Shown here: one piece after another, positions 14,676 through 62,951 of the stretch
Position numbering within the stretch: the first letter of the stretch is position 1
Layout of the letters: every line of letters begins with the position of its first letter
Origin: Escherichia phage KIT01
Direction: 5' to 3' (one strand)
Sequence record: AP019521.1
DNA length: 64,000 nucleotides
The notes under the pieces: generated by a model
The model's input: the letters and a program-made list of their open reading frames with translations, nothing else
The model's database searches: none
What the model was told of the DNA's origin: nothing
Program-made: the position numbers and the translations under genes

Positions 14676-14966
14676 TTATTTACGGAACGAAATGAAACCT
14701 GCTGTGGTCATTAGTGGTTGCTTTTTAACAAAGACCGTGATAGAAATAGGAGCTTCAGATTCAAGCTGACCGGTTACTACACCATTAAAGATATTTTCAG
14801 TTTGTTCTGGATGAGAAAAATTCTCAACAGGTCGGATATCAAACTGTTTGTCTTCACCGAAAACTCGACGTAATTCATTACCTACTGCACTGTCAAACTC
14901 TTCGGAAGCAGGGATAACGTTTTCAACCACCAGTTCTTGACCATTAAAACGGAATGCAGATTTCAT
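14676..14966 (-). CDS. Hypothetical protein downstream of the alt cluster
   Basis: 96-aa ORF following the alt paralogs on the same strand. Confidence 0.5.
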   Translation of the reverse strand: MKSAFRFNGQELVVENVIPASEEFDSAVGNELRRVFGEDKQFDIRPVENFSHPEQTENIFNGVVTGQLESEAPISITVFVKKQPLMTTAGFISFRK

Positions 14967-15023
14967 AATGTTCTCCTCATGTTTGTGTAAGGTAATAGTA
15001 CCACATCCTTGTGGTGTTGTAAA

Positions 15024-17147: not shown

Positions 17148-17150
17148 TAT

Positions 17151-19196
17151 TTACCCTTGGGTGAATTTTTCTGGGGTTTCGTCAAAATTAATACATGAAG
17201 CTAAAATAGGCATTATATCCACCTTGGTCGATTTGACGAATGAATCAAAAGACACAGGGTTGTCGGTCTCTGTTTCTACGCCTTGGTAAACAACCAATTC
17301 GCCGGTTTCCATCAATGCATCACCATCATAGATAACCGCATTTTCTGCTAGTTGGTCTGTGGTCTGGATGTCAGCTTCCAATAATTTGGTGTTGTAGTTT
17401 CCTTTATATGAGGCATCTGTAATTTTAGTAATCTTAACAGTAGTTCCACGTGGAAGAATAACCTCTTGTTCTGTTGGAGAACCTGACAATTCACCGGGCA
17501 CAATTACGTTAATAGAGTCTGCACCGGAAATTTTCCAACCGATGTTCATCATTGTATTTTCGGAACTCGTCAGCATACTTGGAAGAACAATTTCATTATC
17601 GCCTTGGAAAGATGTCCCAGCACGATAGTCCTGATGAACTGCGGCCATTGCGACGTTTGATACCCAGCCGCCAAAGATAATCGGCTTAAGGGACGTTGAT
17701 ACATAGTTCCTGAAATAAAACAATTTTGAGTGTTTGATTTTATCAAAAGTGTTAACATTTAAATATTGACCACGCCAAAGTGTAATATCAGGTGGCAATT
17801 TATGGCCAATTTCAAATGCCGCATCCATATCATTAATTACTTCAATTACACGATAACTATCAATAAATTCTGCATCCTCTTCATAATAATTACCCAACAA
17901 ATAATTATTAACATCGGTATAATATTGGCCGCAATAAGAAGAAATAGCCTCACGCTGCTCATACTCAAATCGATTATCGCTATAACTGGCTGTAAAATGC
18001 ATAACACTTTCTGACGCTTCATTAGCAAAGTCGCTAACAGCAGCACTTATACGTTGAGCATACTCTTGTTCCCAAAGCTCTGCCGCATATTCTGCCGCAT
18101 CCATATTAGGAGGAGCCTCATTCATTTTTCTTTCGATAAATGCAGCTTTGCGAAGGTTAAGAACCTCTGCACATGATTCGGCAAAAATCTGCATCTGCTT
18201 CATACTGCCGACAGGAGCACGTTTAAGTTCACGATGCATACGGTTAAAAATTGGGTCGGAGTCTTCGACTCGAATTTCTTCTTTCCAAACACCGTTTGCT
18301 CGCATAGCCATATCTGCCGCGCGCATACGCTCCATAGTATTCGTTTCAGAAGGTTGAATAAAAATTTCTAGTTCTTCATAATCATCGATAAGTTCTGCTG
18401 TTGCTGGGGCGCTAAATTTTGATGCCTCTGCATCAATCTCATCCCAACCTTCCGGAACTTCATCTCGAGGAGAATACTGGGCTGCGGCTACAGCACGCCT
18501 AGAAATCTTGGTAGTAGTAATAACAGCCTTATCCGTACGTTTTTCTTCGACTGCAGCTATACTAGCAGATAGTGCTTCTATTTTGGTTACTGATTGGCCT
18601 GTTTTCTTGGATACATAAACCTCACCAACTTTAGACTCAACCTTAGTGTAAAGGTCTGCATCAATTTCAGGCATACCTTTTATGTCCTCAATATTAGCTT
18701 GTTTACGAACCAGTAAAACGTATGTATGTTTGCCTGTAAATTGATACAAATCATCGACAACTTTAAACTTGCCGCCAGTACGAGCCATCGCCAAACGTGC
18801 CAATACACGTTGAACAGTAGGACCTTTACCTTTCATTTTCTTGGTAGGGAACCGGAAAAGAACTGCATCCATACGAAGAGCTTTAACTTGTTCGTATACA
18901 GTATCAAAAATGGTATTCAGCGTACCAAGTGGGTCAGAACCTAACCCGCCTTTCAACTCGGCTGGGGTACCCTTAGCAGACAAACTCATCAAAATAACAT
19001 GAACATATTTATCGCCCGGCTTAACCATTTTAATAGCGTCTCCTTGAGACGCATAAGATACCATACGAGCAACCAGGTTATCGTTACCTGGTGCTTGGAT
19101 AGAGAAAATCTGTGGAATACCGGAACCCGGTTTAAGATTTACTACTGGATAGTTTTTAGCGGAATCACTATCAAAAACCTCGTTTAAATTTTCCAT
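17151..19196 (-). CDS. alt: Alt-like mono-ADP-ribosyltransferase, paralog 2
   Basis: 681 aa; conserved N-terminus (MENLNEVFD...PQIFS...), WRGQ, YVSTSLKP and EVILPRG motifs; divergent central region. Confidence 0.85.
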   Translation of the reverse strand: MENLNEVFDSDSAKNYPVVNLKPGSGIPQIFSIQAPGNDNLVARMVSYASQGDAIKMVKPGDKYVHVILMSLSAKGTPAELKGGLGSDPLGTLNTIFDTVYEQVKALRMDAVLFRFPTKKMKGKGPTVQRVLARLAMARTGGKFKVVDDLYQFTGKHTYVLLVRKQANIEDIKGMPEIDADLYTKVESKVGEVYVSKKTGQSVTKIEALSASIAAVEEKRTDKAVITTTKISRRAVAAAQYSPRDEVPEGWDEIDAEASKFSAPATAELIDDYEELEIFIQPSETNTMERMRAADMAMRANGVWKEEIRVEDSDPIFNRMHRELKRAPVGSMKQMQIFAESCAEVLNLRKAAFIERKMNEAPPNMDAAEYAAELWEQEYAQRISAAVSDFANEASESVMHFTASYSDNRFEYEQREAISSYCGQYYTDVNNYLLGNYYEEDAEFIDSYRVIEVINDMDAAFEIGHKLPPDITLWRGQYLNVNTFDKIKHSKLFYFRNYVSTSLKPIIFGGWVSNVAMAAVHQDYRAGTSFQGDNEIVLPSMLTSSENTMMNIGWKISGADSINVIVPGELSGSPTEQEVILPRGTTVKITKITDASYKGNYNTKLLEADIQTTDQLAENAVIYDGDALMETGELVVYQGVETETDNPVSFDSFVKSTKVDIMPILASCINFDETPEKFTQG

Positions 19197-19199
19197 TAT

Positions 19200-21287
19200 T
19201 TACCCTTGGATGAATTTTTCTGGGATGTCATAGAGGTCTATGCATGAAGCCAAAAGAGACAGTACATCAAACCGTGTAGATTTAACAAATGAATCAAAAG
19301 ATACGGGGCTTTCGGAAGTATCGAAATCATCTTGATATACGACCAACTCACCGGTTTCCATTAGTACGTCACCATCATATACCACAGATTCTTGAAGCTC
19401 ATCTGATGTCATAACTTCAGCTTGAATAAATTTATTGTTAGACCCAGCCCCAGAACCAGTATTGGCTGATGCATCCACGATTTTATCTATTTTTACAAGT
19501 AGCCCGCGTGGTAAAATTATTTCCTTTTCGTTGGCATGCATGCTTAATTGGCCAGGATAAATCACGTTAACCTTATGAGCGCCACTAATAGCCCAGCCAA
19601 CATCAACCCGGATTTGATCCGGTGCATACATATGTGTACGCACTTGACTATCAGAGATGGTAACGCCTTCGTCATTATTATCAACGTTTAATTCTTTTCG
19701 AACATCATCGGAAGCAAGACCAATAGCCGCATTCTCTTTAAAGCCACCAAAAATGATTGGAGCCAATGAGGTTGAAACATAGTTTCTAAAATAGAATACC
19801 TTATTTTTAACTAATGCTTCGTAGATAGGCGCGCGCAAAGATTGGGCTCTATAAACCATTATTCCTTCAGGTAAACGGTCACCATTTTTAAAGGCCGAAT
19901 CCATTCCATCAATAGCACGTTTAACTTCGCTTTCGTCCAAAACTTCATAAAAGCCTGGTTTATAACGGCCAAGAAGGACATTGTTGATATCAACATAAGC
20001 TGAAGAGGCGTATTCTCTGATAGCTCGTTTTTCTGCAAGTGTATATTGTTTAGGGTCTCGAGATGTTGTTATATTAAGAATTTCTCTAGTTGATTCTATA
20101 GCGTATGTATACATTATCTTAGACAAGAATGAAGACTTACGTTGTTTCCATACTCTTTCACTGTTTTCATTCAATATCTCTTTTTCCAAATGGAAATTGT
20201 CTTTTCTATAATCTTCAAACCAATCACTTTTAATAGATTCTGCGATTTCATTAGCAGCTTCAACAAAGGCAGCTAAAGCTTTAACTGACGTGGTTTTTTC
20301 ATTTTTAATTTTTTTGACAAATTTTTCTAAAGAAGAGTTAATTTTATCACCGTAAGAAACTTCATCCGCAAATTTAAATGAATCATCCATAGTATTATAA
20401 ATTTTAAAATCAATAGCCGTAGCCAGCTTATCCTTAGCTGTTTCGGATGATAATGATAATTCAACTTCGGCTGCTTGTGGAATTAATTCCGCCGTAGCAG
20501 GTGCACTGAACTCATTGGCAGTTTGTTCATATTTCTGAAACAATTCACCTTCATTACGGTCTGCTTCTAATGACTGACTTGCTGCAATAGCACGACGGGA
20601 AATCTTAGTTTTGGTTATAACCATTTTATCAGTGCGACGTTCTTCAACTTTAGCAATACTGCCGGCAATAGCAGTTTCTTTAGTAACCTGCATGCCTTCT
20701 TTTTTAGAAATATAAACTTCACCGACATCAGAATCTACCTTAGTATATAATTCAGCATTAATTTCTGGTATACCCTTAATATCTTCAATGTTAGCTTGTT
20801 TACGAACTACCAGAATATAAGTATGTTTGCCGGTGAATTCATACATGGCTGGAACTACTTTAAATCGTCCACCAGTTTTCTGTGCTACTAAACGTTGAAT
20901 AATACGTTGAACGATAGGACCTTGTCCTTTCATTTTCTTGGTAGGGAACCGGAACATCACGGCATCCATACGAAGAGCTTTAACTTGTTCGTAGACAACA
21001 CTAAAGATAGTATTAATTGCATCGATAGGAGTAGGGCCAAGGCCACCCTTAAGTTCTGCTGGAGTACCTTTAGCTGATAAACTCATCAGAATAACGTGGG
21101 CATATTTATCACCTAATTTAACTTGTTTGATCGCGTCTCCTTGAGACGCATAAGATACCATACGAGCAACTAATTGGGACTCTGCATCGCCAATCTTCCA
21201 AATCTGGGGTACTTTAAGTTTAGGGTTCAAGTTTACTGTAGGCAGTGTGCCTTCGGACTCAAACACTTCATTTAATTGTTCGGTCAT
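19200..21287 (-). CDS. alt: Alt-like mono-ADP-ribosyltransferase, paralog 3 (closest to T4 Alt)
   Basis: 695 aa; YRAQSL, RNYVSTSLAP, NEKEIILPRGLLVKIDKI and C-terminal LMETGELV all match T4 Alt. Confidence 0.88.
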   Translation of the reverse strand: MTEQLNEVFESEGTLPTVNLNPKLKVPQIWKIGDAESQLVARMVSYASQGDAIKQVKLGDKYAHVILMSLSAKGTPAELKGGLGPTPIDAINTIFSVVYEQVKALRMDAVMFRFPTKKMKGQGPIVQRIIQRLVAQKTGGRFKVVPAMYEFTGKHTYILVVRKQANIEDIKGIPEINAELYTKVDSDVGEVYISKKEGMQVTKETAIAGSIAKVEERRTDKMVITKTKISRRAIAASQSLEADRNEGELFQKYEQTANEFSAPATAELIPQAAEVELSLSSETAKDKLATAIDFKIYNTMDDSFKFADEVSYGDKINSSLEKFVKKIKNEKTTSVKALAAFVEAANEIAESIKSDWFEDYRKDNFHLEKEILNENSERVWKQRKSSFLSKIMYTYAIESTREILNITTSRDPKQYTLAEKRAIREYASSAYVDINNVLLGRYKPGFYEVLDESEVKRAIDGMDSAFKNGDRLPEGIMVYRAQSLRAPIYEALVKNKVFYFRNYVSTSLAPIIFGGFKENAAIGLASDDVRKELNVDNNDEGVTISDSQVRTHMYAPDQIRVDVGWAISGAHKVNVIYPGQLSMHANEKEIILPRGLLVKIDKIVDASANTGSGAGSNNKFIQAEVMTSDELQESVVYDGDVLMETGELVVYQDDFDTSESPVSFDSFVKSTRFDVLSLLASCIDLYDIPEKFIQG

Positions 21288-24789: not shown

Positions 24790-25076
24790 TAGAACCTCAT
24801 CTGAAAGCCGTGCGATTTAACATTACCACCATAGATGTCAGACGTATTGACTTCACGTGCAGCACTTGGGTCGATATTGATATCATGGTTGAGCTTAGTG
24901 ATTGCCAGGGTATCACGACCATTAACAGTACGGAATTCCACCGGGCATACAACATCGGCATAAGCCTTAATAGATTCACGAGTAGGTTGTTTGTCGGCAG
25001 GAACATCTTTACCTGCTTTAGAGAAAACAACTTCACAGAAATTTTTACGAGTATCAAAATAAGTGGTCATAAACAT
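24789..25076 (-). CDS. Hypothetical protein
   Basis: ATG at 25076 (MFMTTYFD...) downstream of the hairpin at 25093-25108. Confidence 0.5.
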   Translation of the reverse strand: MFMTTYFDTRKNFCEVVFSKAGKDVPADKQPTRESIKAYADVVCPVEFRTVNGRDTLAITKLNHDINIDPSAAREVNTSDIYGGNVKSHGFQMRF

Positions 25077-25117
25077 AATATTTTCCTCAAAGGAGGCCGA
25101 AGCCTCCATTTTTAAGA

Positions 25118-25483
25118 TTAGATATCGAATTCGTTCAGAACTACATCAAAGATTGCTTCCAGGTGTTCAGGTTTAGCTCGGTTGCTCAGGATGTGACGAA
25201 TCCAGGTTTTAACCAGAAGCTTACGATTAACGCCGTTCCAGCAAGGATGGGTACCTAAATCACGTTGACGGAAATCGTCATCTAAAGCGATTTTAAAAGT
25301 AGAACCTTCCATTGTGATTGAAACCGTAATACCATTTTCAAAGCGCATATAAACGTAGTTAGGAGTCATGCACTGTTCGATTTCGCACACGGTGCCGTTG
25401 TTGTGTTTCCACAGGCAAATAACTTCAGAAGAACCAGCGATACCGTTAGAAACATATTTACGTTCGAAGTTGATGTAGTTCAT
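25118..25483 (-). CDS. Hypothetical early protein
   Basis: 121-aa ORF with its own early promoter and leader. Confidence 0.55.
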   Translation of the reverse strand: MNYINFERKYVSNGIAGSSEVICLWKHNNGTVCEIEQCMTPNYVYMRFENGITVSITMEGSTFKIALDDDFRQRDLGTHPCWNGVNRKLLVKTWIRHILSNRAKPEHLEAIFDVVLNEFDI

Positions 25484-25520
25484 TTTATTCTCCAGTTTGT
25501 TTTCGTATTATTTGGTACAG

Positions 25521-25556
25521 GTCTATAATAACACAACCTGTACCAAAGTAAAACAT
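25521..25556 (-). promoter_or_regulatory. T4-type early promoter
   Basis: Minus strand reads GTTTTAC-N16-TTATTATAG, embedded in an inverted repeat GGTACAGG/CCTGTACC. Confidence 0.5.
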
Positions 25557-25889
25557 TTATTTCACAACATTCCAATTTTTCATATCAAGTTTACCAACTT
25601 TTTTCATCTGAGCAATCAGACGTTCAGCGCGTGTACGGGCATTAACGTAATAGAATTCACCAATTTTGTTTTCTTCAATACGGCCAGTAATTACAGTTTT
25701 CAGTTCATAAATCCAACCTGTAAAGAAGTTGTGAAGCTCGATGGTAAATGTGAAATCAGTACCCATACCTTCAGTTGTTTCAACTTCGATGATATCACCT
25801 TCAACTGCAGTCAGGACCCACATGGTTTCTTGATATCCGCCGTTGAAACATTTAGCTTTAACAGATGCATTCAGATTTACAGTTTTCAT
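25557..25889 (-). CDS. Hypothetical early protein
   Basis: 110-aa ORF; shares an identical 39-nt initiation region with the downstream gene. Confidence 0.55.
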   Translation of the reverse strand: MKTVNLNASVKAKCFNGGYQETMWVLTAVEGDIIEVETTEGMGTDFTFTIELHNFFTGWIYELKTVITGRIEENKIGEFYYVNARTRAERLIAQMKKVGKLDMKNWNVVK

Positions 25890-25924
25890 TTTATTCTCCA
25901 GTTTGTTTTCGTATTATTTGGTAC

Positions 25925-25960
25925 ATGTCTATAGTATCACGCCTACCGGAGATGTACACC
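25925..25960 (-). promoter_or_regulatory. T4-type early promoter
   Basis: Minus strand reads GTGTACA-N16-TACTATAGAC. Confidence 0.5.
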
Positions 25961-25980
25961 TTTTTTTAAAGATTTAGAAA

Positions 25981-26005
25981 CAAAAATGGGACTCCGAAGA
26001 GTCCC
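25981..26005 (-). terminator. Rho-independent terminator (minus strand)
   Basis: Hairpin GGGACTC-TTCG-GAGTCCC followed by ATTTTTG on the minus strand. Confidence 0.6.
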
Positions 26006-26010
26006 ATAAC

Positions 26011-28528: not shown

Positions 28529-29082
28529 TAGATAGTCTCCAACTTAAGTTGTTTGGTAGTGGTAGCTTGGGTAACGTCGCCTTTAACAATATAACACACT
28601 TGTTGGAACGAACTGGTCAAAAGCTCTTCGGCTTGACGATCTGCTTGTTCCTTTGTGTTATGGCGAGAATGAACTTCAATTTTACCATTTTTAACAATAA
28701 GCACTTTCCAATCGGCTGTAGCTTTTACTGGCTTAGGTTCCGGCTTTACAGCAATACTCGTAGTAGCCAGTGGACGTACTACTTCAATAAAGTATTCGAA
28801 TTCATGGGCAAAGGCGCCTACTGAATTAAAAAGAACACTAGTTGCATCATCGGGATTACCTGTGATTTTGCTCAGGTCAACAAACATCAACTCATCGTAT
28901 ACACGAATTCGGCTTACACGTGGCTTCCCGTTATGGTAATCAATTTCAACTTCAAACGGGTTCATACCTACATACTTGGCAAAAGCTGTATTGAGGCCAT
29001 AAGCACCGTTATTAGTGAATTTGTTTTTAGTGTATTCACCAACGAACTTATAAAACTTACGCTCTTCAAAGAACTGGCTCAT
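28528..29082 (-). CDS. Hypothetical early protein
   Basis: ATG at 29082 (MSQFFEERKFY...) with RBS GAGGAAA; early promoter upstream. Confidence 0.55.
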   Translation of the reverse strand: MSQFFEERKFYKFVGEYTKNKFTNNGAYGLNTAFAKYVGMNPFEVEIDYHNGKPRVSRIRVYDELMFVDLSKITGNPDDATSVLFNSVGAFAHEFEYFIEVVRPLATTSIAVKPEPKPVKATADWKVLIVKNGKIEVHSRHNTKEQADRQAEELLTSSFQQVCYIVKGDVTQATTTKQLKLETI

Positions 29083-29106
29083 TTCGATTTCCTCATTTGT
29101 TTCGGT

Positions 29107-29144
29107 AGGACTACTATACCACAGTCCTACCATAGTGTAAACAC
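29107..29144 (-). promoter_or_regulatory. T4-type early promoter
   Basis: Minus strand reads GTTTACA-N17-TATAGTAGTC, inside the inverted repeat GGTAGGACT/AGTCCTACC. Confidence 0.55.
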
Positions 29145-31037: not shown

Positions 31038-31552
31038 ACGCCAAGTTCCTTATAAAGTTCTTCACGGCAAGTTTTAAGGGTTTTACCTGATTCGTAAGCA
31101 ACACTTTCAGGAACATCACCAAGGGTTACTGCGGATTGCATTTGGCCATGGCGTTTAGCCGCATATTCAAAACTTTTCACCAGTTCACGAATACGTTCTT
31201 TTTCATTGTACTCTTCAATGAATTCAGGGTATTCCCAAACAGGTCGCATCATACGATACCAATGCTGAATAGTAATATAATTACTTCCATCCAGATTAAT
31301 AATTTGCGAAGGCTTAATAGACCCTGGAGCATAAAAAGTTACCTGTCTTACTACATCAATACCGTCCACCATAGCCCAAGCAAAATCAAAAGTTGCCTTC
31401 TTTTCAATTGGTGTACTTGCACAGGACCCTAGTTTTAGGAGCTTTTGTAATGCAGGTGATTTAACACCTGAAATGTATTCAGGCTTAGCCACAAAACTGT
31501 TATCACGTAAAGTCATAGTCATTTCCTCAAATTTTATAATCCGTAGGAGCAT
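31034..31552 (-). CDS. Hypothetical protein
   Basis: 172-aa ORF. Confidence 0.5.
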
Positions 31553-31683
31553 TATACTCTGCTCCCAAGAGTTTGTAAACTACTTTCCAAAAAGACCATG
31601 CATACACATACTGAACACAATCCCAAAACAAAAGAATGCAGCGCCAAATCTAACGGCATCCCAACCGCAAACACATGTCTCAA

Positions 31684-32324: not shown

Positions 32325-32812
32325 TTGGTAATAATCTCGATGATGTCATCACGTGACAGGGAATTAATAAGAACCGTTTTAGGGTTTTCACACTGAATTT
32401 TATACGTTTCAAACATAAAACACAATTCTTCAGCGGTATGGTAAGGACTTGAAATGCCAAGGCGATTAAACTTGTCGCTTAATGGGTCACAAATCAAATA
32501 GAAAGTGATGCCTGAGATTTTGACATTAGGTTGACTAATATTAATGAACACCTCGGCATCATACTTGGAAAGGTTGTTTTGGAGAAACTCAACCATAGAG
32601 TTGACAGCTTCAGGCATGGCTTCACGCTTTTCTTCTGCGTAACGGGTAGAGTATTCTTTTTGCTTGATTTTCTTTTTAGCATTTTTAGCTAAAGTAACAC
32701 GAAGATCGGTCAGGTAACCTACTGCACGAGAACCTTTAAAAACTTGGATACCGTCAGTAGAATCACCAAAAGCCTTAACAACCATTTCGTTAGTAATCAT
32801 TTGCATATTCAT
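32312..32812 (-). CDS. Alc-like protein candidate (position of T4 alc)
   Basis: 166 aa, in the T4 alc position between rnlA and the spanin pair; assignment by synteny and size only. Confidence 0.4.
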   Translation of the reverse strand: MNMQMITNEMVVKAFGDSTDGIQVFKGSRAVGYLTDLRVTLAKNAKKKIKQKEYSTRYAEEKREAMPEAVNSMVEFLQNNLSKYDAEVFINISQPNVKISGITFYLICDPLSDKFNRLGISSPYHTAEELCFMFETYKIQCENPKTVLINSLSRDDIIEIITKCLN

Positions 32813-32838
32813 TTTGTTTTTCTCCTCATTAGTTGGTA

Positions 32839-32875
32839 AGTCTATACTAACACATCATGAGGAGATGTAAACTAC
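32839..32875 (-). promoter_or_regulatory. T4-type early promoter
   Basis: Minus strand reads GTTTACA-N16-TAGTATAGAC with flanking inverted repeat TCTCCTCAT/ATGAGGAGA. Confidence 0.5.
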
Positions 32876-38011: not shown

Positions 38012-38305
38012 TTATAGGTCTTCTAATGAGAACGTGTCTTTGAAAAGTTTGTTAACAACCAGGGCTATCACATCCCCATGACAGTCCTTAGGTTTACAGG
38101 TACACGCTATACGCATACCTCTAAGGGTTTCAAGATGTTCTCTTTTAATTTCGCCCGATTTTATTTTAGCAATAAAGTATTCTTTAAAGTTCTTGATGTT
38201 TTCCTCGCGGGTTCCATCTTTAAATGGATTACCCCACATAGTCCCACGTTGGATATTGACATCAAAATCTTCTTTATACTTGTTAACAACTCTGCAGACT
38301 CTCAT
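38012..38305 (-). CDS. Hypothetical protein with WGNPF motif and CxC...C-H cluster
   Basis: 97-aa ORF between td and nrdA; contains MWGNPF and CTCKPKDCH. Confidence 0.5.
   Translation of the reverse strand: MRVCRVVNKYKEDFDVNIQRGTMWGNPFKDGTREENIKNFKEYFIAKIKSGEIKREHLETLRGMRIACTCKPKDCHGDVIALVVNKLFKDTFSLEDL

Positions 38306-39229: not shown

Positions 39230-39242
<13 letters not shown>
38367..39242 (-). CDS. td: Thymidylate synthase, uninterrupted
   Basis: 291 aa continuous ORF; active-site ALPPCH; strong match to T4 Td exons with no intervening sequence. Confidence 0.95.
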
Positions 39243-40274
<1,032 letters not shown>

Positions 40275-40293
40275 TTTATTCTCCTTAGTTGAC

Positions 40294-40329
40294 CAGGCTA
40301 TAGTATCACTACCATAGCCTGGTGTAAAC
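40294..40329 (-). promoter_or_regulatory. T4-type early promoter
   Basis: Minus strand reads GTTTACA-N17-TACTATAGCC with inverted repeat CCAGGCTAT/ATAGCCTGG. Confidence 0.55.
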
Positions 40330-40557
40330 TTATTTTTGAATTAAGCCCATATAAAATTTAGCGTCTTCCGGGTGCATACCGTCACAATACTCGTAAGCCA
40401 TAAAGCGGGTAAGGTCTTCAAGAGGACCTTGGACTTCAATTTGCATACTACAGAATTGAGTATCTTTAATATGGGTCATAACTAAAGAAGGATAACGATT
40501 ACGGATAACTTCGTAAGTGTATTCAAAATCAACGATATCAATATTAACCTTAGCCAT
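40330..40557 (-). CDS. Hypothetical protein
   Basis: ATG at 40557 (MAKVNIDIV...) preceded by GAGGAAAAT; an in-frame upstream ATG exists at 40575. Confidence 0.5.
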
Positions 40558-40584
40558 TTTATTTTCCTCACTCATTAGTTGATA

Positions 40585-40618
40585 GGTCTATAGTATCATG
40601 TTTAAAGCAGATGTAAAC
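40585..40618 (-). promoter_or_regulatory. T4-type early promoter (40-nt exact copy of the motA promoter)
   Basis: Minus strand reads GTTTACATCTGCTTTAAACATGATACTATAGACCTATC; 40581-40620 is identical to 58048-58087. Confidence 0.6.
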
Positions 40619-40620
40619 AC

Positions 40621-40881
40621 TTATTTTTGAATTTTATCAAGCCACTTACCAAGTTTAATCATTTCTTTGGTAGCTTTTTCCATACTTCTGAATTTAACCA
40701 GTAAAGGTTGGGCATCAACACCCATAACTAAGGTGGTTACAAGACTATGTTCACCTACAAGCCATAATGAATACGTTTGGATATCGAGCCCATAATTTCT
40801 GTCTTTATGAACTCGTACACCCATCACTTCAAATTTCTCACTGGCTTTTTCTACTGCATCCAGGAAATCATCTTTAGTCAT
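40621..40881 (-). CDS. Hypothetical protein
   Basis: ORF from ATG at 40881 (MTKDDFLDAVEKA...). Confidence 0.45.
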   Translation of the reverse strand: MTKDDFLDAVEKASEKFEVMGVRVHKDRNYGLDIQTYSLWLVGEHSLVTTLVMGVDAQPLLVKFRSMEKATKEMIKLGKWLDKIQK

Positions 40882-40882
40882 A

Positions 40883-41272
40883 TTAGGCCTTAAAAGTTTT
40901 TTGCAAAAGTTCAATGATTTGGTCAACGTTCTGTTCGGTAACAATGCAATGGATTTGAGTTACGCCGGTCTTAGCAATAGGCTCATCGATTTCTTTATCT
41001 TCCGCAACATATTCACGGAAGCAATAGAACTCGTCTTCATGCAACTCAAAATAATTTGGCGCCAACCCGTCTGCACTAAAAATCTCGCCATTAGCGCATT
41101 CGATTTCAGTCACAAATTTGTCGCCATCCACAGTCAACATATCCTTTACTTCAAACCAACCACCGTTGTCTTGGATAAGGTCGACCATGTTTTTATTATT
41201 TTCATATTCGTCCATTTCAATAAAGTCTTTAATGCATTCAGGACGAAGTTCATAAGTTTTACCGATTTCCAT
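40883..41272 (-). CDS. Hypothetical acidic protein
   Basis: 129-aa ORF with early promoter upstream. Confidence 0.5.
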   Translation of the reverse strand: MEIGKTYELRPECIKDFIEMDEYENNKNMVDLIQDNGGWFEVKDMLTVDGDKFVTEIECANGEIFSADGLAPNYFELHEDEFYCFREYVAEDKEIDEPIAKTGVTQIHCIVTEQNVDQIIELLQKTFKA

Positions 41273-41294
41273 TTTATTTCCTCATGTAGTTGAT

Positions 41295-41329
41295 AGGTCT
41301 ATAGTATCACGTTTAAAGGCATTGTAAAC
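41295..41329 (-). promoter_or_regulatory. T4-type early promoter
   Basis: Minus strand reads GTTTACA-N17-TACTATAGACCTATCAACTA. Confidence 0.55.
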
Positions 41330-41381
41330 CGTTAAATGCCAAAAAGGGAAGACCGAAGTCTTCCCATTATAAATCAATAAC

Positions 41382-43585: not shown

Positions 43586-44533
43586 TTAATAAAAATCAGC
43601 TACTGTAGCAGTTAGTTTAGACAAACCAGATTTAACGAAATAAGGATAGACTTTAGATTTCGAAGGTTTGTTATATGTATTATATCTTTCAGTAATTAAA
43701 GCAACAATATCATCTGGAATAAAGTCCATATCAATTAAGATTTGGTTTTCACAGAAACGTTCATATTGTTCTTCAGTAAGAAGTGTTTTAATTATATCAT
43801 GGTCATAATAATTAAGAGCAATCGCTTCAAGTTCCTTGGCACGAGTGCTAGGAGTACGTTCGCCTTCAACCATTGTCAACCAGTAATCACCACGAACTTT
43901 AATACTCGCAACGTTATCCTTGCGGTCACCTTTAATAACCTTAGTCACGCAATCAAGCAATGCATCGCCGGATTTTGTTTTGACGAATTTTTTCTGCATT
44001 GGGGACCATTGTTTTACCCCAGGGAATTTATGGAGTTGGGTAAAGTCACCATCAGAAGAACCAATCATAACGGGATGACCTAAAGCTGTAAGGATACGAG
44101 TCAATACAGCAATATGGTCATCAGCCTCGATTGTATCGATATTCATAACAATATAAGGCATATTATGTTCCAATTCATCGACAATAACATGCATTGCTGT
44201 AAATAGGCCTTCCCAATCAAATGGTGATTCGTCACGTGCCTTAGCACGGTTTTTCTTATAATAAGAAGAATAACGACGGCGCCAATATCCTGATTTGGAA
44301 TTATCGACACAAATAATTAATTGGTTGTAACCTTGTTTTTTAAAGTCTTTAATGTTTTTCTTAATTGAATTCAACACGAGGTGTCGAAGCATTGCTGTAG
44401 TTACTTTAGGAAATCCGGCATTCTCGCCAAACTCTTGGAAAGCCGCAGCCATAATGATTTGGCTGAAATCTAGGAGTAAAAACCCATCTTTTTGTTGGTC
44501 TTCTTCAGGAAGTAAAAAATCTAAATCGTTCAT
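43586..44533 (-). CDS. rnh: RNase H (5'-3' exonuclease / flap endonuclease)
   Basis: Match to T4 RNase H (LDFSQI..., CVDN.KSGYWRR, EADDHIAVL, SSDGDFTQLHK, KGD.KDNVAS.KVR). Likely start is ATG at 44533 just after a 10-bp hairpin; an in-frame upstream ATG lies at 44566. Confidence 0.9.
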   Translation of the reverse strand: MNDLDFLLPEEDQQKDGFLLLDFSQIIMAAAFQEFGENAGFPKVTTAMLRHLVLNSIKKNIKDFKKQGYNQLIICVDNSKSGYWRRRYSSYYKKNRAKARDESPFDWEGLFTAMHVIVDELEHNMPYIVMNIDTIEADDHIAVLTRILTALGHPVMIGSSDGDFTQLHKFPGVKQWSPMQKKFVKTKSGDALLDCVTKVIKGDRKDNVASIKVRGDYWLTMVEGERTPSTRAKELEAIALNYYDHDIIKTLLTEEQYERFCENQILIDMDFIPDDIVALITERYNTYNKPSKSKVYPYFVKSGLSKLTATVADFY

Positions 44534-44562
44534 ATGAACCTCTGTCCAATTAGTGTAGAGGT

Positions 44563-44594
44563 TCATTATATCATGACCCTAGAAGAAGTAAACA
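44563..44594 (-). promoter_or_regulatory. Early promoter for rnh
   Basis: Minus strand reads GTTTAC-N17-TATAAT. Confidence 0.5.
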
Positions 44595-53878: not shown

Positions 53879-54676
53879 ATGGCAGTAACAGGACCGTGGG
53901 TAGGATCGTCTGCAGTAGTTAACACAGGACAAAACTGGATGGGCGGCGCCGCTCAACGATTGAGAATGGGTATTCCGTTTTGGATGAGTAATATGAACGG
54001 TCGGTCTGTTGAAGTAATTCATACCATAACGGCAAACCATAACTTTAATGGTCAATGGTTCCGCGACCGCTGTTTTGAAGCAGGCAGCGCACCTATTGTG
54101 TTTAATATCACAGGCGATATAGTATCTTACGACCGTAATGTTCCATTGTTCTTTATGAATGCCGACACACCTAATGAATATGTCAATTTGACTATTCATG
54201 GAGGCGTGCATATGTGGGGCCGAGGCGGCCACGGTGGGTGGACCCATTCAGGTGGCGACGGTAACGGTCAATGGGGCGGTGATTGTATAGTCAACCATAT
54301 AGGTCATAGACTTCGTATTTGGAACTATGGGGTTATCTGTGGTGGTGGCGGTGGCGGTGGTGGCATTGCGTATCGTCCTCACTCAGGTGCTAACTGGCAA
54401 GATATCGGTGGTGGTGGTGGACGTCCATTTGGTCCTGGTGGCGGTGGTGGATACTCCGGTGGTGGTGCTTCTTATGAAAGCCCTGGCGGTGGATACGATT
54501 ATGGTAACGCCCACTCGGGTCGGGGTGGTGATGCTGGTGCCGCAGGCCAGAACGCATGGAATGATGGTGGTAAAGTTCTTAAAGTTGGGGCTGGGGGCGG
54601 TTCTGGGGCTGCTGTTGCCGTTTCTGCTCCTGCATGGGGCGCGACCGGTACGATTTACGGCCCTTGGCTTAGTTAA
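53879..54676 (+). CDS. 38: gp38 receptor-recognising adhesin (T2-type, glycine-rich)
   Basis: ATG at 53879 after RBS GGAGG; conserved N-terminus, poly-Gly tracts (GGGGGGGG, GGGGG) separating variable segments, as in T2/K3-type gp38. Confidence 0.85.
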
Positions 54677-55361: not shown

Positions 55362-55633
55362 AAATTGGAGGTATACATCATTAAGTAACGGTGTATATCT
55401 TCATAGCCTTCATTAAATTGCTCAATAAGAGTGTCACGTTCATCTTCAGTTAATGACTTAAATAATTTGTTATAAGACAAACCATTAAGTTCCTTTCCAT
55501 GTTCATTACGAATACCCAACTCATTCAAAAAGGCAATAAACTCATCACGGCGTTGCATGATGTCTTCACAATCCGTTTTAATCAAAATGGAAACAATAGT
55601 AGCAATTTCGGAAACGATTTCAATTTTAGTCAT
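55358..55633 (-). CDS. asiA: AsiA anti-sigma-70 factor
   Basis: 91 aa; matches T4 AsiA (SILIK...FIAFLNE.G...LI..FNEG.E...RYL.MYT). Confidence 0.9.
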   Translation of the reverse strand: MTKIEIVSEIATIVSILIKTDCEDIMQRRDEFIAFLNELGIRNEHGKELNGLSYNKLFKSLTEDERDTLIEQFNEGYEDIHRYLMMYTSNF

Positions 55634-55668
55634 AATATTCTCTTCAATTCAGTACGTCATTATCTGAT

Positions 55669-55703
55669 AAGGCTATACTAACATATCCTTACGGATTGTA
55701 AAC
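55669..55703 (-). promoter_or_regulatory. Early promoter for asiA
   Basis: Minus strand reads GTTTACA-N16-TAGTATAGCC. Confidence 0.55.
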
Positions 55704-57385: not shown

Positions 57386-58018
57386 TTAAATTGCGTTGGT
57401 TACAGTTTTGATAACTTCAGATGATACGTTTTGGAAGTCGATATAAGTATTCTTACCACCAGTCTTAATCTTAACATCAAGATTCAAGGAAGTAAACACT
57501 TGTTTTTCTTTATCAGTCATATTATAACCGAAAATACGCATCATTCCATCACGACGGACTTCGATTTGACGAATACCATTGGTACGTTTAGCGAATCGAA
57601 CTTCAAGGTTGCTACGGTTTTCAGCAATTTCACGAATCTCGATACGGTCTTCTAATAAAGCTTTAACTTCATCAGCCAGTGTTACCATTTCAGGAGTAAC
57701 ACCACGTGAGCTACGCGTTTTACGTTTTTCCAACATCTCTGGAGCATTTTCAGAAGCGAACAAGTCAGCAGCTTTTTGAACTAGGTCCATTGCTTCACCT
57801 GTAGCCACTAATCCGTCACCAGATTTTTCGATGAACCCTTTCTTAATCAATACACCGATGTTAGAGTTAACCACCGCAGCACTAAATTGCTCACTCAGGG
57901 CTTCACGGACTTCGCCTGAAGTGATGAAGTTATGCTTGATGATATGTACTAAGATCGAAGCAGTTTTTTCATTCAGGGCGTCTTCAGAAGCTTTGATGAT
58001 ATAAGTAATTTTAGACAT
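57386..58018 (-). CDS. motA: MotA middle-transcription activator
   Basis: 210 aa; matches T4 MotA (MSK.TYIIKAS.D.LNEKTA.IL..I...FIT..EVRE...NSNIGVLIKKG..EKSGDGL). Confidence 0.9.
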   Translation of the reverse strand: MSKITYIIKASEDALNEKTASILVHIIKHNFITSGEVREALSEQFSAAVVNSNIGVLIKKGFIEKSGDGLVATGEAMDLVQKAADLFASENAPEMLEKRKTRSSRGVTPEMVTLADEVKALLEDRIEIREIAENRSNLEVRFAKRTNGIRQIEVRRDGMMRIFGYNMTDKEKQVFTSLNLDVKIKTGGKNTYIDFQNVSSEVIKTVTNAI

Positions 58019-58050
58019 TTTGTATCTCCGTTTCAGTTCATTTATTTGAT

Positions 58051-58085
58051 AGGTCTATAGTATCATGTTTAAAGCAGATGTAAAC
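58051..58085 (-). promoter_or_regulatory. Early promoter for motA
   Basis: Minus strand reads GTTTACATCTGCTTTAAACATGATACTATAGACC; 40-nt exact duplicate of 40581-40620. Confidence 0.6.
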
Positions 58086-58227
58086 ACTTTTTGCACTAAA
58101 CCCAAAAAAAGGAACCCGAAGGTTCCTTACTTTTTAAAGTGGGCTGCTATTAAACCTATAGCCAAGCCTGTCGCCAGGCCTAGGATAACAGCAAAGATAC
58201 AGAGTAATAAGAACTCGACTCCAAGGC

Positions 58228-59701: not shown

Positions 59702-59855
59702 TTTTAATCGTCTTAAGTAAACCGACAAAAGTAGAAAGAACCCAACCAATAAGCAGAAAACTTAAGAATATCGGGCCAGGGGTCCACACACCTAAAAAGA
59801 AGCAAACTGAACAGACTATAGCCGTAATAAGTTCAATAAAAACTACGATAATCAT
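59694..59855 (-). CDS. Small hydrophobic membrane protein
   Basis: 53-aa ORF (MIIVVFIELITAIVCSVCFFLGVW...) overlapping the next start (ATGATTAA); not in track. Confidence 0.4.
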   Translation of the reverse strand: MIIVVFIELITAIVCSVCFFLGVWTPGPIFLSFLLIGWVLSTFVGLLKTIKND

Positions 59856-59942
59856 ATTTTCCTCATTAGCGTCCGAAGACGCCTTTAGTTTTAAGATTGT
59901 TACGATAGAACTGCATCACATGTTCGTTATGGAAATTACTCA

Positions 59943-60392
59943 TTAGTAAGCCTGCAGGATGAATTTAAAGTTATCAGCCAACATACGGTTCATTTCTTCC
60001 AGTGTCTGGAGGTCGGAACTATGATTGCGAGTGAAAGCCATTGCAATTTGACCCTTACCAAAACCTGTGGTCAAAGGTTTCATCTTAGAAGCCGGCACAT
60101 AAAGAACTTCATACACAACGCCGTTCACTGCCATAGTGCGAGCTGATTGAGAACGTTTCTTACGAATATTAGCCACGATACCATCGAGACCTTGAGCAGA
60201 ACGTTGATTACCAACATAAAAACGAGCAGCTACGACACGGGAATCAGCACCACCTTTAACAAAGAAGTAGAAGCCTGGTTGAGCAGAGATTTCTTTAGAA
60301 GGTTTACCATTTTGGTATTCACCATTCTTAACATAAGCAACAGTAGTAGCACCAGCAGACAGAACGTTACGGCGAGTCATATAAGTATTCAT
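59943..60392 (-). CDS. ndd: Ndd nucleoid disruption protein
   Basis: 149 aa; strong match to T4 Ndd ([12 protein letters not shown]...[25 protein letters not shown]...[20 protein letters not shown]). Confidence 0.9.
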
Positions 60393-60439
60393 ATCAATTT
60401 CCTCAGTAGATTAATGTTTTGTTATCCAGTCAACGAGAA

Positions 60440-60470
60440 CCATTATAACATGATTCTCGAGGTTGTAAAC
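60440..60470 (-). promoter_or_regulatory. Early promoter for ndd
   Basis: Minus strand reads GTTTACA-N16-TATAAT. Confidence 0.55.
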
Positions 60471-61047: not shown

Positions 61048-61164
61048 TCAGAAGTTAAAGAATACACGTACATGGTCAATCATAAAAACGATTGGGAAAA
61101 TGCTCAATACCAAAAATAACACAAACATGTTCCAAATTGCTTTAAGTAAGTTTTTCATAATCAT
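61048..61164 (-). CDS. Small hydrophobic protein (38 aa)
   Basis: ORF MIMKNLLKAIWNMFVLFLVLSIFPIVFMIDH... directly downstream of an early promoter; not in track. Confidence 0.35.
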   Translation of the reverse strand: MIMKNLLKAIWNMFVLFLVLSIFPIVFMIDHVRVFFNF

Positions 61165-61178
61165 CTCCATTAGTTGAT

Positions 61179-61213
61179 AGGTCTATAGTATCATGATTAA
61201 TGGAGATGTATAC
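61179..61213 (-). promoter_or_regulatory. T4-type early promoter with 11-bp flanking inverted repeat
   Basis: Minus strand reads GTATACA-N16-TACTATAGACC; inverted repeat CATCTCCATTA/TAATGGAGATG brackets it. Confidence 0.5.
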
Positions 61214-61303: not shown

Positions 61304-61570
61304 TCAAAACACCACCTCTTTTATCTCAATCAATCCCCTGTACAATGCAGTGCGGAGGTCATAAAGAATATCTATGCCGTCGACATTATCCAGTTTACCG
61401 TCGATAAGTTTTTGTAAATCTTCCTTTGATGCGATTAAGGGACGGAGAAATTTACATTCAGAAAGAGATAACTCTGTAGTAACATCATCACCTTCACCTG
61501 ACGCGTCATACATAGCGGCAACAACCATACCCGTAACTTTGTGTTTAGCGTAATATAATTTGATATCCAT
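61304..61570 (-). CDS. Hypothetical early protein
   Basis: 88-aa ORF with RBS GAGGAG. Confidence 0.5.
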   Translation of the reverse strand: MDIKLYYAKHKVTGMVVAAMYDASGEGDDVTTELSLSECKFLRPLIASKEDLQKLIDGKLDNVDGIDILYDLRTALYRGLIEIKEVVF

Positions 61571-61591
61571 TTTGTTCTCCTCATTAGTTGA

Positions 61592-61628
61592 TAGGAAGAT
61601 AGTAACACCATCCGTGGCGTTATAAATT
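61592..61628 (-). promoter_or_regulatory. Early promoter variant
   Basis: Same leader (CCTATCAACTAATGAGGAG) and -10-like TTACTATCTTCC as the 61879-61915 promoter, but the -35 is degenerate. Confidence 0.35.
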
Positions 61629-61854
61629 AAGCAACGGAATGTTTTGGATGCTGTTTAGCCCAACCTACTAAAAATTCCCAATACTTTTCGATAGAACCGT
61701 AAAGATTAATTACCGTAGGAGTGGTAACTTCAGTCCAATCTTTTTGAACATTACCTGTTTTAATATTGGTAAGCTTGTGAAACACTTTACCGTTCTCAAA
61801 TTTATATTCTTCGATTTTACGATTGATTGCTTTAACAGAAGTAATAGAAGTCAT
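61627..61854 (-). CDS. Hypothetical early protein
   Basis: ORF from ATG at 61854 (MTSITSVKAINRK...). Confidence 0.5.
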   Translation of the reverse strand: MTSITSVKAINRKIEEYKFENGKVFHKLTNIKTGNVQKDWTEVTTPTVINLYGSIEKYWEFLVGWAKQHPKHSVA

Positions 61855-61878
61855 AATATTTTCCTCTCGTGTAGTTGA

Positions 61879-61915
61879 TAGGAAGATAGTAACACCATCC
61901 ATGGCGTATGTAAAC
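61879..61915 (-). promoter_or_regulatory. T4-type early promoter
   Basis: Minus strand reads GTTTACA-N17-TTACTATCTTCC. Confidence 0.5.
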
Positions 61916-62715: not shown

Positions 62716-62913
62716 TTACCCACCGAAATAAGAAATACGAACCTCTAAACAATGAGCATAAGCGCCCATCGCATCCAGTTGGGCAATAAGTAACCCTTGT
62801 TGACGGATATCAAGAGTTTCAAAAACACCGCCTTTAATAAAGGTTTCTAGTGCGTTAATTTTAAGAACCAACTGGTCGTATTCTTCAACTACACGTGCCT
62901 GGTAACCTAACAT
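62716..62913 (-). CDS. Hypothetical small protein
   Basis: 65-aa ORF downstream of rIIB, preceded by the hairpin at 62926-62941. Confidence 0.45.
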   Translation of the reverse strand: MLGYQARVVEEYDQLVLKINALETFIKGGVFETLDIRQQGLLIAQLDAMGAYAHCLEVRISYFGG

Positions 62914-62951
62914 AATTCCTCATTAGGAGGCCGAAGCCTCCGTTTATTGAT

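Follow-up and report, generated by a model that had tools for sequence, protein, structure and literature searches.

Early regions of T4-like phages carry short regulatory cassettes known as promoter-early stem-loops (PeSLs), in which an AT-rich tract, a −35 and a −10 box, a stem-loop of variable position, a Shine–Dalgarno (SD) sequence, and an ATG are combined, and which occur at sites of insertion or deletion (PMC2839356, PMC4122927). The stem can lie upstream of the two boxes but is usually between them or over the −10, and small early open reading frames (ORFs) flank the cassettes (PMC2839356, PMC4122927). The first PeSLs came from RB49/phi1 (Arbiol et al. 2010, PMC2839356), and those of T4/PST and KVP40/nt-1 followed (Comeau et al. 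2014, PMC4122927). Both papers have recombinational shuffling as their main thesis (PMC2839356, PMC4122927), and across the two, terminator-like activity was shown for a single RB49 stem; phage JS98 enters the 2010 paper only through a brief mention of “PeSL-like sequences” near its g43 (PMC2839356). The early promoters of T4 itself belong to a UP/−35/TGn/−10 class with extra conserved positions, including GTTTAC at −36 to −31 and an A-rich stretch at −40 to −44 (PMC2988021, PMC1524935), and are conserved well beyond the hexamers (PMC2988021). Here we describe a family of early promoter–leader cassettes in a stretch of 64,000 nucleotides (nt) of Escherichia phage KIT01 (AP019521.1), referred to throughout as the window. 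We consider it highly probable (roughly 85%) that its 16 sites are sigma-70-dependent T4-type early promoters joined to a short, partly conserved leader with an SD and a start codon, that is, cassettes of the PeSL type. The promoter class and cassette-mediated shuffling are both already known in T4-like phages, and the Dhakavirus cassettes are a further case.

Judged by its sequence relationships, the window phage is a JS98/IME08-type T4-like phage of the genus Dhakavirus. A 3-kb stretch around the cassette region is 91 to 97% identical to Dhakavirus phages (JS98, JS10, IME08, QL01, WG01, and others), with Salmonella phage vB_SalM_ABTNLsp5 as the best match, and corresponds to the frd–gene 32 region of the matched records. 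By the annotation of IME08, the window spans alt, 30, cd, pseT, alc, nrd, td, frd, 32, 59, 33, and rnh as well as the tail-fibre genes 34–38, t, asiA, arn, motA, 52, and ndd. For comparison we used seven Dhakavirus genomes (IME08, ABTNLsp5, JS10, PSD9, QL01, JS98, and C6), each represented by a locus of ≈43 to 45 kb except ABTNLsp5, for which it was only 27 kb; orthologous promoters were further sampled from IMG/VR contigs.

All 16 cassettes lie on the minus strand and read GTTTACA-N16/17-TGnTAnnAT, followed by the leader, the SD, and the ATG (Table 1). An earlier note on this sequence, made without database searches, had pointed to at least a dozen such minus-strand sites, and each of the 13 that it listed is present within ≈10 nt of the position it gave, with a GTTTACA-like −35, a 16- to 17-nt spacer ending in TGn, a TAnnAT −10, and a leader with GAGG or GGAG before the ATG. 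Following its suggestion of a matrix-based scan, we built a position weight matrix (PWM) from the core promoter only (9 nt around the −35 and 10 nt around the −10). In the window this matrix finds 15 minus-strand sites at 19 to 29 bits, nothing at 12 to 19 bits, and no plus-strand site at or above 14 bits, against about 0 to 3 sites per mononucleotide shuffle at the same thresholds. The three sites beyond the 13 are 15000, which the scan added, 44570, which was also found as repeat family D5, and 31556. A rescan at a threshold of 13 adds a weak minus-strand site at 57473 (14.0 bits) and one plus-strand match. At this threshold the minus strand holds 16 sites in the window, 14 to 16 in each full-length locus of ≈43 kb, and 11 in the 27 kb of ABTNLsp5; each set includes one weak site of 13 to 14 bits, and the only plus-strand match among the compared loci is the one in the window.

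In the core, the information content is 1.2 to 1.9 bits at the GTTTACA, TG, and TA..AT positions. TGn is present in 15 of 16 sites, the exception being 31556, and most −10 elements are TACTAT or TAGTAT. AT content is 71% in the 24 nt before the −35 and 60% in the window as a whole, and 55% of the bases at −46 to −39 are A. The true, SD-preceded ATG follows 25 to 49 nt after the −10; apparent distances of 14 nt at 40595, 61190, and 61604 stem from spurious ATGs in the leader, the true starts being 40557, 61158, and 61570. Many cassettes directly abut the gene before them: the stop codon of the upstream ORF lies 0 to 10 nt from the −35 in 10 of 16, and this stop, often TAG, can overlap the promoter by one base, its final G doubling as the first letter of GTTTACA (15024, 32872, 60470, 61627, and others). 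A scan with a generic sigma-70 consensus returned totals no higher than in shuffled sequence (13 versus 18, 33 versus 26, and 42 versus 55), and only its TTTACA plus TGn subset is informative. An Rfam scan of the whole window gave no matches, placing the leader and the stems described below outside any curated RNA family.

The genes behind these sites are largely those expected of early promoters. By Pfam, the downstream ORFs include DUF5498, gp30.7, gp30.8, Alc, DUF5417 (frd.1), FRD3, FRD2, RNase H, AsiA, MotA, and Ndd, together with several further small ORFs that have no Pfam match; most are orthologues of T4 early genes. The sites share with the T4 early (“uber”) promoters (Wilkens & Ruger; Miller et al. 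2003; PMC2988021) the GTTTAC −35, the A-rich UP region, TGn, TAnnAT, and the position before early genes, and differ in the −10, which is TATAAT in T4 and mostly TACTAT or TAGTAT here. Window cassettes can be aligned, leader included, with the T4 denV promoter and with a Tequatrovirus motA promoter, and the motA cassette is nearly identical from the −35 to the ATG in Tequatrovirus OE5505. When one cassette was used as a BLAST query, each Dhakavirus genome gave 13 to 19 matches, and many Tequatrovirus and Mosigvirus genomes gave one each. The proposal in the earlier note that the sites combine a T4-type early promoter with a leader and a ribosome-binding site thus agrees both with the published architecture and with the genes served. 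The products would be immediate-early mRNAs for host-takeover and accessory genes, namely alc, asiA, motA, ndd, frd.1–3, 30.7/30.8, rnh, and small ORFs. It is scarcely credible that the TGCTT-containing copies (frd.3, motA, and frd.2) are instead MotA-dependent middle promoters. Their spacer sequence TCTGCTTTA does resemble a MotA box, (a/t)(a/t)(a/t)TGCTTtA (PMC1524935), but the box-like TGCTTTA ends 7 nt before the −10 rather than 11 to 13 nt, the same copies have a full GTTTACA −35, which the MotA box replaces in middle promoters, at a normal 16-nt spacing, and motA, itself among the genes served, must be made before MotA exists. A MotA-box reading of TCTGCTTTA was rejected on spacing.

Similarity between the cassettes extends past the core into the leader. 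Over the 18 nt after the −10, pairwise identity is 49% (43% without the obvious duplicates), compared with 26% (maximum 31%) for random segments. The earlier note's shared leader therefore stands over this stretch, but as a full 27-mer, TACTATAGACCTATCAACTAATGAGGA, it was overstated: only four sites lie within three mismatches of it, and matches range from 7 to 25 of 27 positions. The leader similarity is real but graded. Promoter geometry would put the start of transcription ≈7 nt after the −10, so the conserved ATCAACTAATGAGGA would be essentially the whole 5′ untranslated region. Part of the leader may also be a target for RNA processing, as the endoribonuclease RegB has a strong consensus, GGAGRAYARAA, in the translation initiation region of early mRNAs (PMC3014915). 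Exact matches to it, which are predicted sites, occur in the leaders of 25530, 25936, and 40305 (GGAGAATAAAA) and of 61604 (GGAGAACAAAA); the motA leader carries GGAGATACAAA.

Stem-loops, the feature after which PeSLs are named, are embedded in a subset of the cassettes. At 25530, 29118, and 40305 the spacer pairs perfectly over 9 to 12 bp with sequence beyond the −10, and similar stems join the spacer to the SD at 32849 and 61190; RNA-folding z scores for the five range from −2.8 to −6.6 (Table 1). Stems of at least 9 bp form in 5 of 15 cognate spacer/downstream pairs compared with 3 of 210 noncognate pairs (Fisher P = 3e-5). A further, imperfect stem is present at 60447, and in total ≈9 of 16 sites have a stem or an upstream terminator. 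The statement in the earlier note that inverted repeats often bracket the −10 thus holds for five or six of 16 sites, but not for the copies on which it focused (40595, 41306, and 58062), none of which has a significant stem by RNA folding. Separate cUUCGg-loop terminators lie upstream of three cassettes (25936, 41306, and 58062), and the one after gene 32 forms with P-frd.2 a composite terminator–promoter. The two arrangements tend to follow the available space: four of the five embedded-stem cassettes belong to the group that abuts the upstream stop codon (61190 lies 91 nt from it), and the gap to the upstream ORF is at least 50 nt at each of the three terminator-bearing cassettes. Where the upstream ORF abuts the −35, then, the solution would often be a stem-loop inside the promoter, and where the gap is longer, a separate terminator upstream of it. 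The embedded stems were also considered as canonical intrinsic terminators, a reading that was rejected for want of a U-tract; only the three separate upstream hairpins pass a terminator scan.

The evolution of these stems points to selection on pairing. Among frd.1 promoter orthologues from IMG/VR, the stem around the −10 is kept with at least five different arm sequences (GGCTAT/ATAGCC, GGGTAAT/ATTACCC, GGGTTAT/ATAACCC, GGTGTAGAGGC/GCTTCTACACC, and ATGGGGC/GGTCCCAT), as expected if pairing and not sequence is under selection. These stems occupy different registers relative to the −10, with the loop centre shifting by 1 to 3 nt. Because such shifts make alignment columns nonhomologous, a single consensus structure (RNAalifold, pair counting) was abandoned and the frd.1 stems are reported as complementarity within each sequence. 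In alc promoter orthologues the position of the stem varies: some stems pair the spacer with the SD, and others lie within the spacer or surround the −10 or the −35. The same data bear on the idea that the inverted repeats are bound by a dimeric DNA-binding regulator and serve as operators for the shut-off of early promoters. The repeats are dyad-symmetric and centred on the −10, and the mechanism of T4 early-promoter shut-off is not fully understood (PMC2988021); yet neither different cassettes nor orthologous copies of a single promoter share arm sequences, although the arms stay complementary, a pattern that marks a folded single strand and not a common protein-binding site, and the register relative to the −10 varies. 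We regard an operator function as barely plausible.

What the embedded stems do can be proposed only tentatively. As the transcript of each cassette itself would start inside the hairpin, the stems should fold only in read-through RNA from upstream, on which they may act as attenuators or 3′-end structures; the exceptions would be alc and the ndd.4-like gene, where the stem would cover the SD. A comparable arrangement is known from T4 e, soc, 49, and I-TevI, where the ribosome-binding site is held in a hairpin on long read-through transcripts and a gene-proximal promoter fires inside the hairpin. The SD-masking form is found here at alc (32849) and the ndd.4-like gene (61190), and also at T4 denV: in all three the 5′ arm lies upstream of the predicted start and the 3′ arm over the SD, so that only read-through RNA could form the stem. 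The promoter within the hairpin is a late one in the T4 examples and an early one in the window, where most stems exclude the SD. In the T4 denV promoter (contig L012, 608–668), GTTTACA-TCTCCTGTAG-...-TACTATAGACCTATCAACTACAGGAGA, 10 bp of the spacer can pair with the SD region, a design shared with the window alc and ndd.4-like cassettes. It is possible, although we would put it at less than even, that the embedded stems are a selected structure general to T-even-type early regions, one that folds only in read-through RNA and either ends or stabilizes the upstream message without a U-tract or masks the SD, such that each small early gene is translated only from its own immediate-early promoter.

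The window cassettes thus compare closely with PeSLs. They share the AT-rich tract, the sigma-70-type −35 and −10 (with a spacer of about 17 nt in PeSLs and 16 to 17 nt here), the variable stem-loop, the 3′ SD and start codon, and the intergenic position between small early ORFs; the T4/PST consensus TTTACW-N17-TAYWAT fits the window sites; and, as set out below, tandem copies flank ORFs that are present or absent among close relatives, with chimeric cassettes at the indel junctions. They differ in belonging to the Dhakavirus group, in having stems that are not of the GGGG/CCCC type of RB49, and in the unusual conservation of the initially transcribed region and leader (AGACCTATCAACTAATGAGGA). 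Lambdoid morons, which consist of promoter, gene, and terminator, also are single accessory ORFs with their own promoter and hairpin boundaries, but lack mutually homologous flanking regulatory sequences as a substrate for recombination.

One trace of exchange between cassettes is a duplicate. The earlier note had reported 40581–40620 (frd.3) and 58048–58087 (motA) on the minus strand as identical over 40 nt; the match is exact and in fact runs for 44 nt (40579–40622 and 58046–58089), with none in shuffled sequences. Relatives place this identity in context, because the frd.3 promoter spacer occurs in three alleles. JS10 and JS98 carry an allele of its own, tggtctataggcatga, which forms a 9-bp stem with ctatagacc (the 40595 copy being stemless in the window phage); ABTNLsp5, PSD9, and QL01 carry the frd.2 allele; and the window phage, IME08, and C6 carry the motA allele. 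The spacer switches as a block, with four changes in 5 nt, to the exact frd.2 or motA sequence. The 44-nt duplicate is best read as a conversion tract in which the frd.3 promoter spacer was converted to motA-type sequence, and since the motA cassette is conserved across genera, into Tequatrovirus, motA would be the donor.

Hybrid cassettes occur where ORFs have come or gone. The tandem pair 61891/61604, which shares ≈36 nt at 97% identity, flanks a 75-aa ORF in the window and in QL01. This ORF is absent from ABTNLsp5, PSD9, C6, and JS10, each of which has one cassette in its place: in the first three the single cassette consists of the 5′ part of 61891 and the 3′ part of 61604, joined within acgccayggatggtgtTACTATcttcctatcaacta, and in JS10 the crossover lies further downstream, in the leader. 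The number of small ORFs between 52 and motA is zero in the window, PSD9, and QL01, one in JS10, JS98, ABTNLsp5, and C6, and two in IME08, and every such ORF has a cassette to itself. In QL01, PSD9, and the window, the single cassette is a mosaic of the two parental cassettes, assembled with a different crossover point in each phage. The frd.1 promoter of PSD9 and QL01 combines a window-type 5′ arm with a JS10-type 3′ arm, and in IME08 one derived TATTAT/gtgt variant is common to three neighbouring cassettes. The extra frd.2a gene of JS10 and JS98 has its junction at 41258–41278, at the P-frd.2 cassette. P-30.7 and P-30.8 are likewise tandem partners, with a 56-nt stretch repeated at 95% identity (repeat family D13), and edges of indels or replacements fall near P-30.8 at 25552/25851, 25927, and 25980–25999. 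The cassettes resemble one another over 40 to 90 nt, and the relatives show that the phage homologous recombination system has exploited them as short patches of homology, the outcomes being deletion or insertion of ORFs between tandem cassettes, ORF replacement, and short conversion tracts. The earlier suggestion that the cassettes may mediate shuffling of early genes, to be examined by comparing cassette-flanked gene content among relatives, is thus borne out in the seven genomes by ORFs gained and lost at hybrid cassettes and by the frd.3 spacer alleles.

One cassette variant also serves different genes in different phages. In the IMG/VR contigs L021 and L023 (alc 48% identical), at ≈340–400, the alc promoter has the stem TTATGGTAGGACT/AGTCCTACCATAA, and the same arms are found at the window 29118 promoter. 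The presence of the arms GGTAGGACT/AGTCCTACC at different genes in different phages would suit truly mobile elements on which a dedicated enzyme, a site-specific recombinase or one of homing type, acts, as opposed to passive patches of homology, an idea that the PeSL authors raised as speculation (PMC2839356). We find this very unlikely: crossover points vary from the −35/spacer to the −10/leader to next to the ATG, with no fixed core site visible, and no recombinase gene is tied to cassettes in the relatives' annotation of the window region.

Several observations weigh against the reading of the sites as PeSL-type cassettes. Promoter activity, start site, and early timing are assigned by homology. 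In the window genome a convincing stem is lacking from four or five cassettes, the focal 40595 among them, and the embedded stems run on into CAACTAAGG, GAAACAA, or TAATACG with no U-tract. When chain gaps were merged into 18 distinct indel or replacement events in early regions, edges touched a cassette in 9 of 18, far more than for random positions (P = 8e-6), but not more than under a gene-boundary null (P = 0.42; ≈26% of gene boundaries carry a cassette), and cassette-free boundaries account for the other half of the indels. At some junctions (PSD9 and the window motA leader), either the crossover took place in only ≈6 nt of homology or the history had several steps. The case for recombination is accordingly one made at the sequence level by the hybrid junctions, not by the frequency of indels.

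The indel result also would suit an account in which the cassettes resemble one another solely through selection for a strong promoter and an efficient translation start, with no role in recombination and with the 44-nt identity arising by convergence. T4 early promoters are conserved beyond the hexamers (PMC2988021), and the near-constancy of the motA cassette between genera indicates strong purifying selection. The spacer, however, varies freely between cassettes and yet, in frd.3, takes on the frd.2 or motA sequence as an exact block; the single cassettes of the relatives are precise 5′/3′ hybrids of the window tandem pair; and the derived IME08 variant recurs in three neighbours. Selection alone is therefore an unlikely explanation, and we favour PeSL-type cassettes that serve as early promoters and as patches of homology.

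Read in this way, the cassettes extend a known mechanism of phage genome plasticity to Dhakavirus, a group widely used in phage-therapy cocktails, with regulatory cassettes that double as recombination linkers. The window and its relatives supply concrete, datable examples: the 44-nt motA-to-frd.3 conversion tract, ORFs that come and go between tandem cassettes, and one promoter with three alleles. To what was known, the analysis adds well-resolved cases of conversion and of hybrid cassettes, and it shows clearly that hairpins embedded in the promoters are maintained through compensatory change. For annotation, the 16 sites would define the immediate-early transcription units in this part of the genome.

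Table 1. Cassettes, terminators, and predicted RegB sites in the window.
Feature	Position	Strand	Details
Cassette before DUF5498 ORF	14964–15024	minus	from PWM scan; absent from the list in the earlier note
P-30.7 cassette	25481–25553	minus	12-bp stem TTTGGTACAGGT/ACCTGTACCAAA around −10, z = −4.2
RegB-consensus leader position	25483–25500	minus	just before ATG
P-30.8 cassette	25887–25959	minus	cUUCGg terminator upstream at 25986–26007
RegB-consensus leader position	25889–25906	minus	just before ATG
Cassette before 184-aa ORF between cd.2 and cd.3	29080–29142	minus	9-bp stem GGTAGGACT/AGTCCTACC around −10, z = −2.8
Early-type promoter before 160-aa ORF	31514–31580	minus	GTTTACA-17-TATAAT, no TGn
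P-alc cassette	32810–32872	minus	spacer TCTCCTCAT complementary to SD region ATGAGGAGA, z = −4.2
P-frd.1 cassette	40272–40329	minus	10-bp stem ACCAGGCTAT/ATAGCCTGGT encloses −10, z = −6.6; ORF DUF5417
RegB-consensus leader position	40274–40290	minus	just before ATG
P-frd.3 cassette	40555–40618	minus	−35 40617–40612, −10 40595–40590, ATG 40557; ORF Pfam Phage_FRD3
P-frd.2 cassette	41270–41329	minus	−10 41306–41301, ATG 41272; ORF Pfam FRD2
cUUCGg-loop intrinsic terminator after gene 32	41346–41365	minus	directly upstream of P-frd.2
P-rnh cassette	44531–44593	minus	leader hairpin takes in SD
P-asiA cassette	55631–55703	minus	
P-motA cassette	58016–58085	minus	−10 58062–58057, ATG 58018; ORF MotA_activ + MotCF
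cUUCGg-loop terminator after gene 52	58109–58128	minus	upstream of motA cassette
P-ndd cassette	60390–60470	minus	imperfect 10-bp stem around −10
Cassette before 36-aa membrane-like peptide (ndd.4-like)	61156–61213	minus	spacer CATCTCCATTA complementary to SD-containing TAATGGAGATG, z = −4.7
Downstream member of tandem pair	61568–61627	minus	degenerate −35 TTTATA; repeat family D10
RegB-consensus leader position	61570–61586	minus	just before ATG
Upstream member of tandem pair	61852–61915	minus	75-aa ORF between it and the 61568–61627 cassette

Two promoter-like sites stand somewhat apart from the rest. The 31556 promoter, missed both by the earlier note and by the PWM, has a short GGAGC/GCTCC dyad around its −10, and the body of the 160-aa ORF behind it is replaced just after the ATG in JS10 and JS98. 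The weak minus-strand site at 57473 (GTGTTTACT-17-TAAGAT, 14 bits) lies inside the motA ORF, is conserved in all eight genomes compared, and could be an internal promoter for arn.4 or merely conserved coding sequence.

Two intervals that vary among the relatives have no cassette at their junctions: 38017–38305 (287 nt), between nrdA and td, is missing in IME08, C6, and ABTNLsp5, and 39234–39433 (198 nt), between td and frd, is missing in IME08, PSD9, QL01, and C6. A promoterless intergenic element, D12, occurs three times on the minus strand (25075–25110, 59851–59886, and 62909–62944) and consists of a cUUCGg hairpin of the GGAGGCTTCGGCCTCC type followed directly by TTTGAGGAAAATATTATG, which holds an SD and an ATG; the copy at 25089 marks the left edge of an 837-nt replacement in JS10. 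Other repeats in the window are coding. On the plus strand, positions 1–1030 contain a long GGN-NNN-NNN run (repeat families D1 and D4) that encodes a collagen-like Gly-X-Y stretch, and glycine-codon repeats of the GGTGGCGGTGG type (D8) are clustered at 54343–54606, within the distal tail-fibre/adhesin region, where the relatives diverge most. Positions 16419–21170 comprise three tandem paralogous units of ≈2.05 to 2.1 kb that are 67 to 80% identical (D2, D3, and D7), in the place where the relatives have at least two adjacent genes annotated as Alt-like RNA polymerase ADP-ribosyltransferases.

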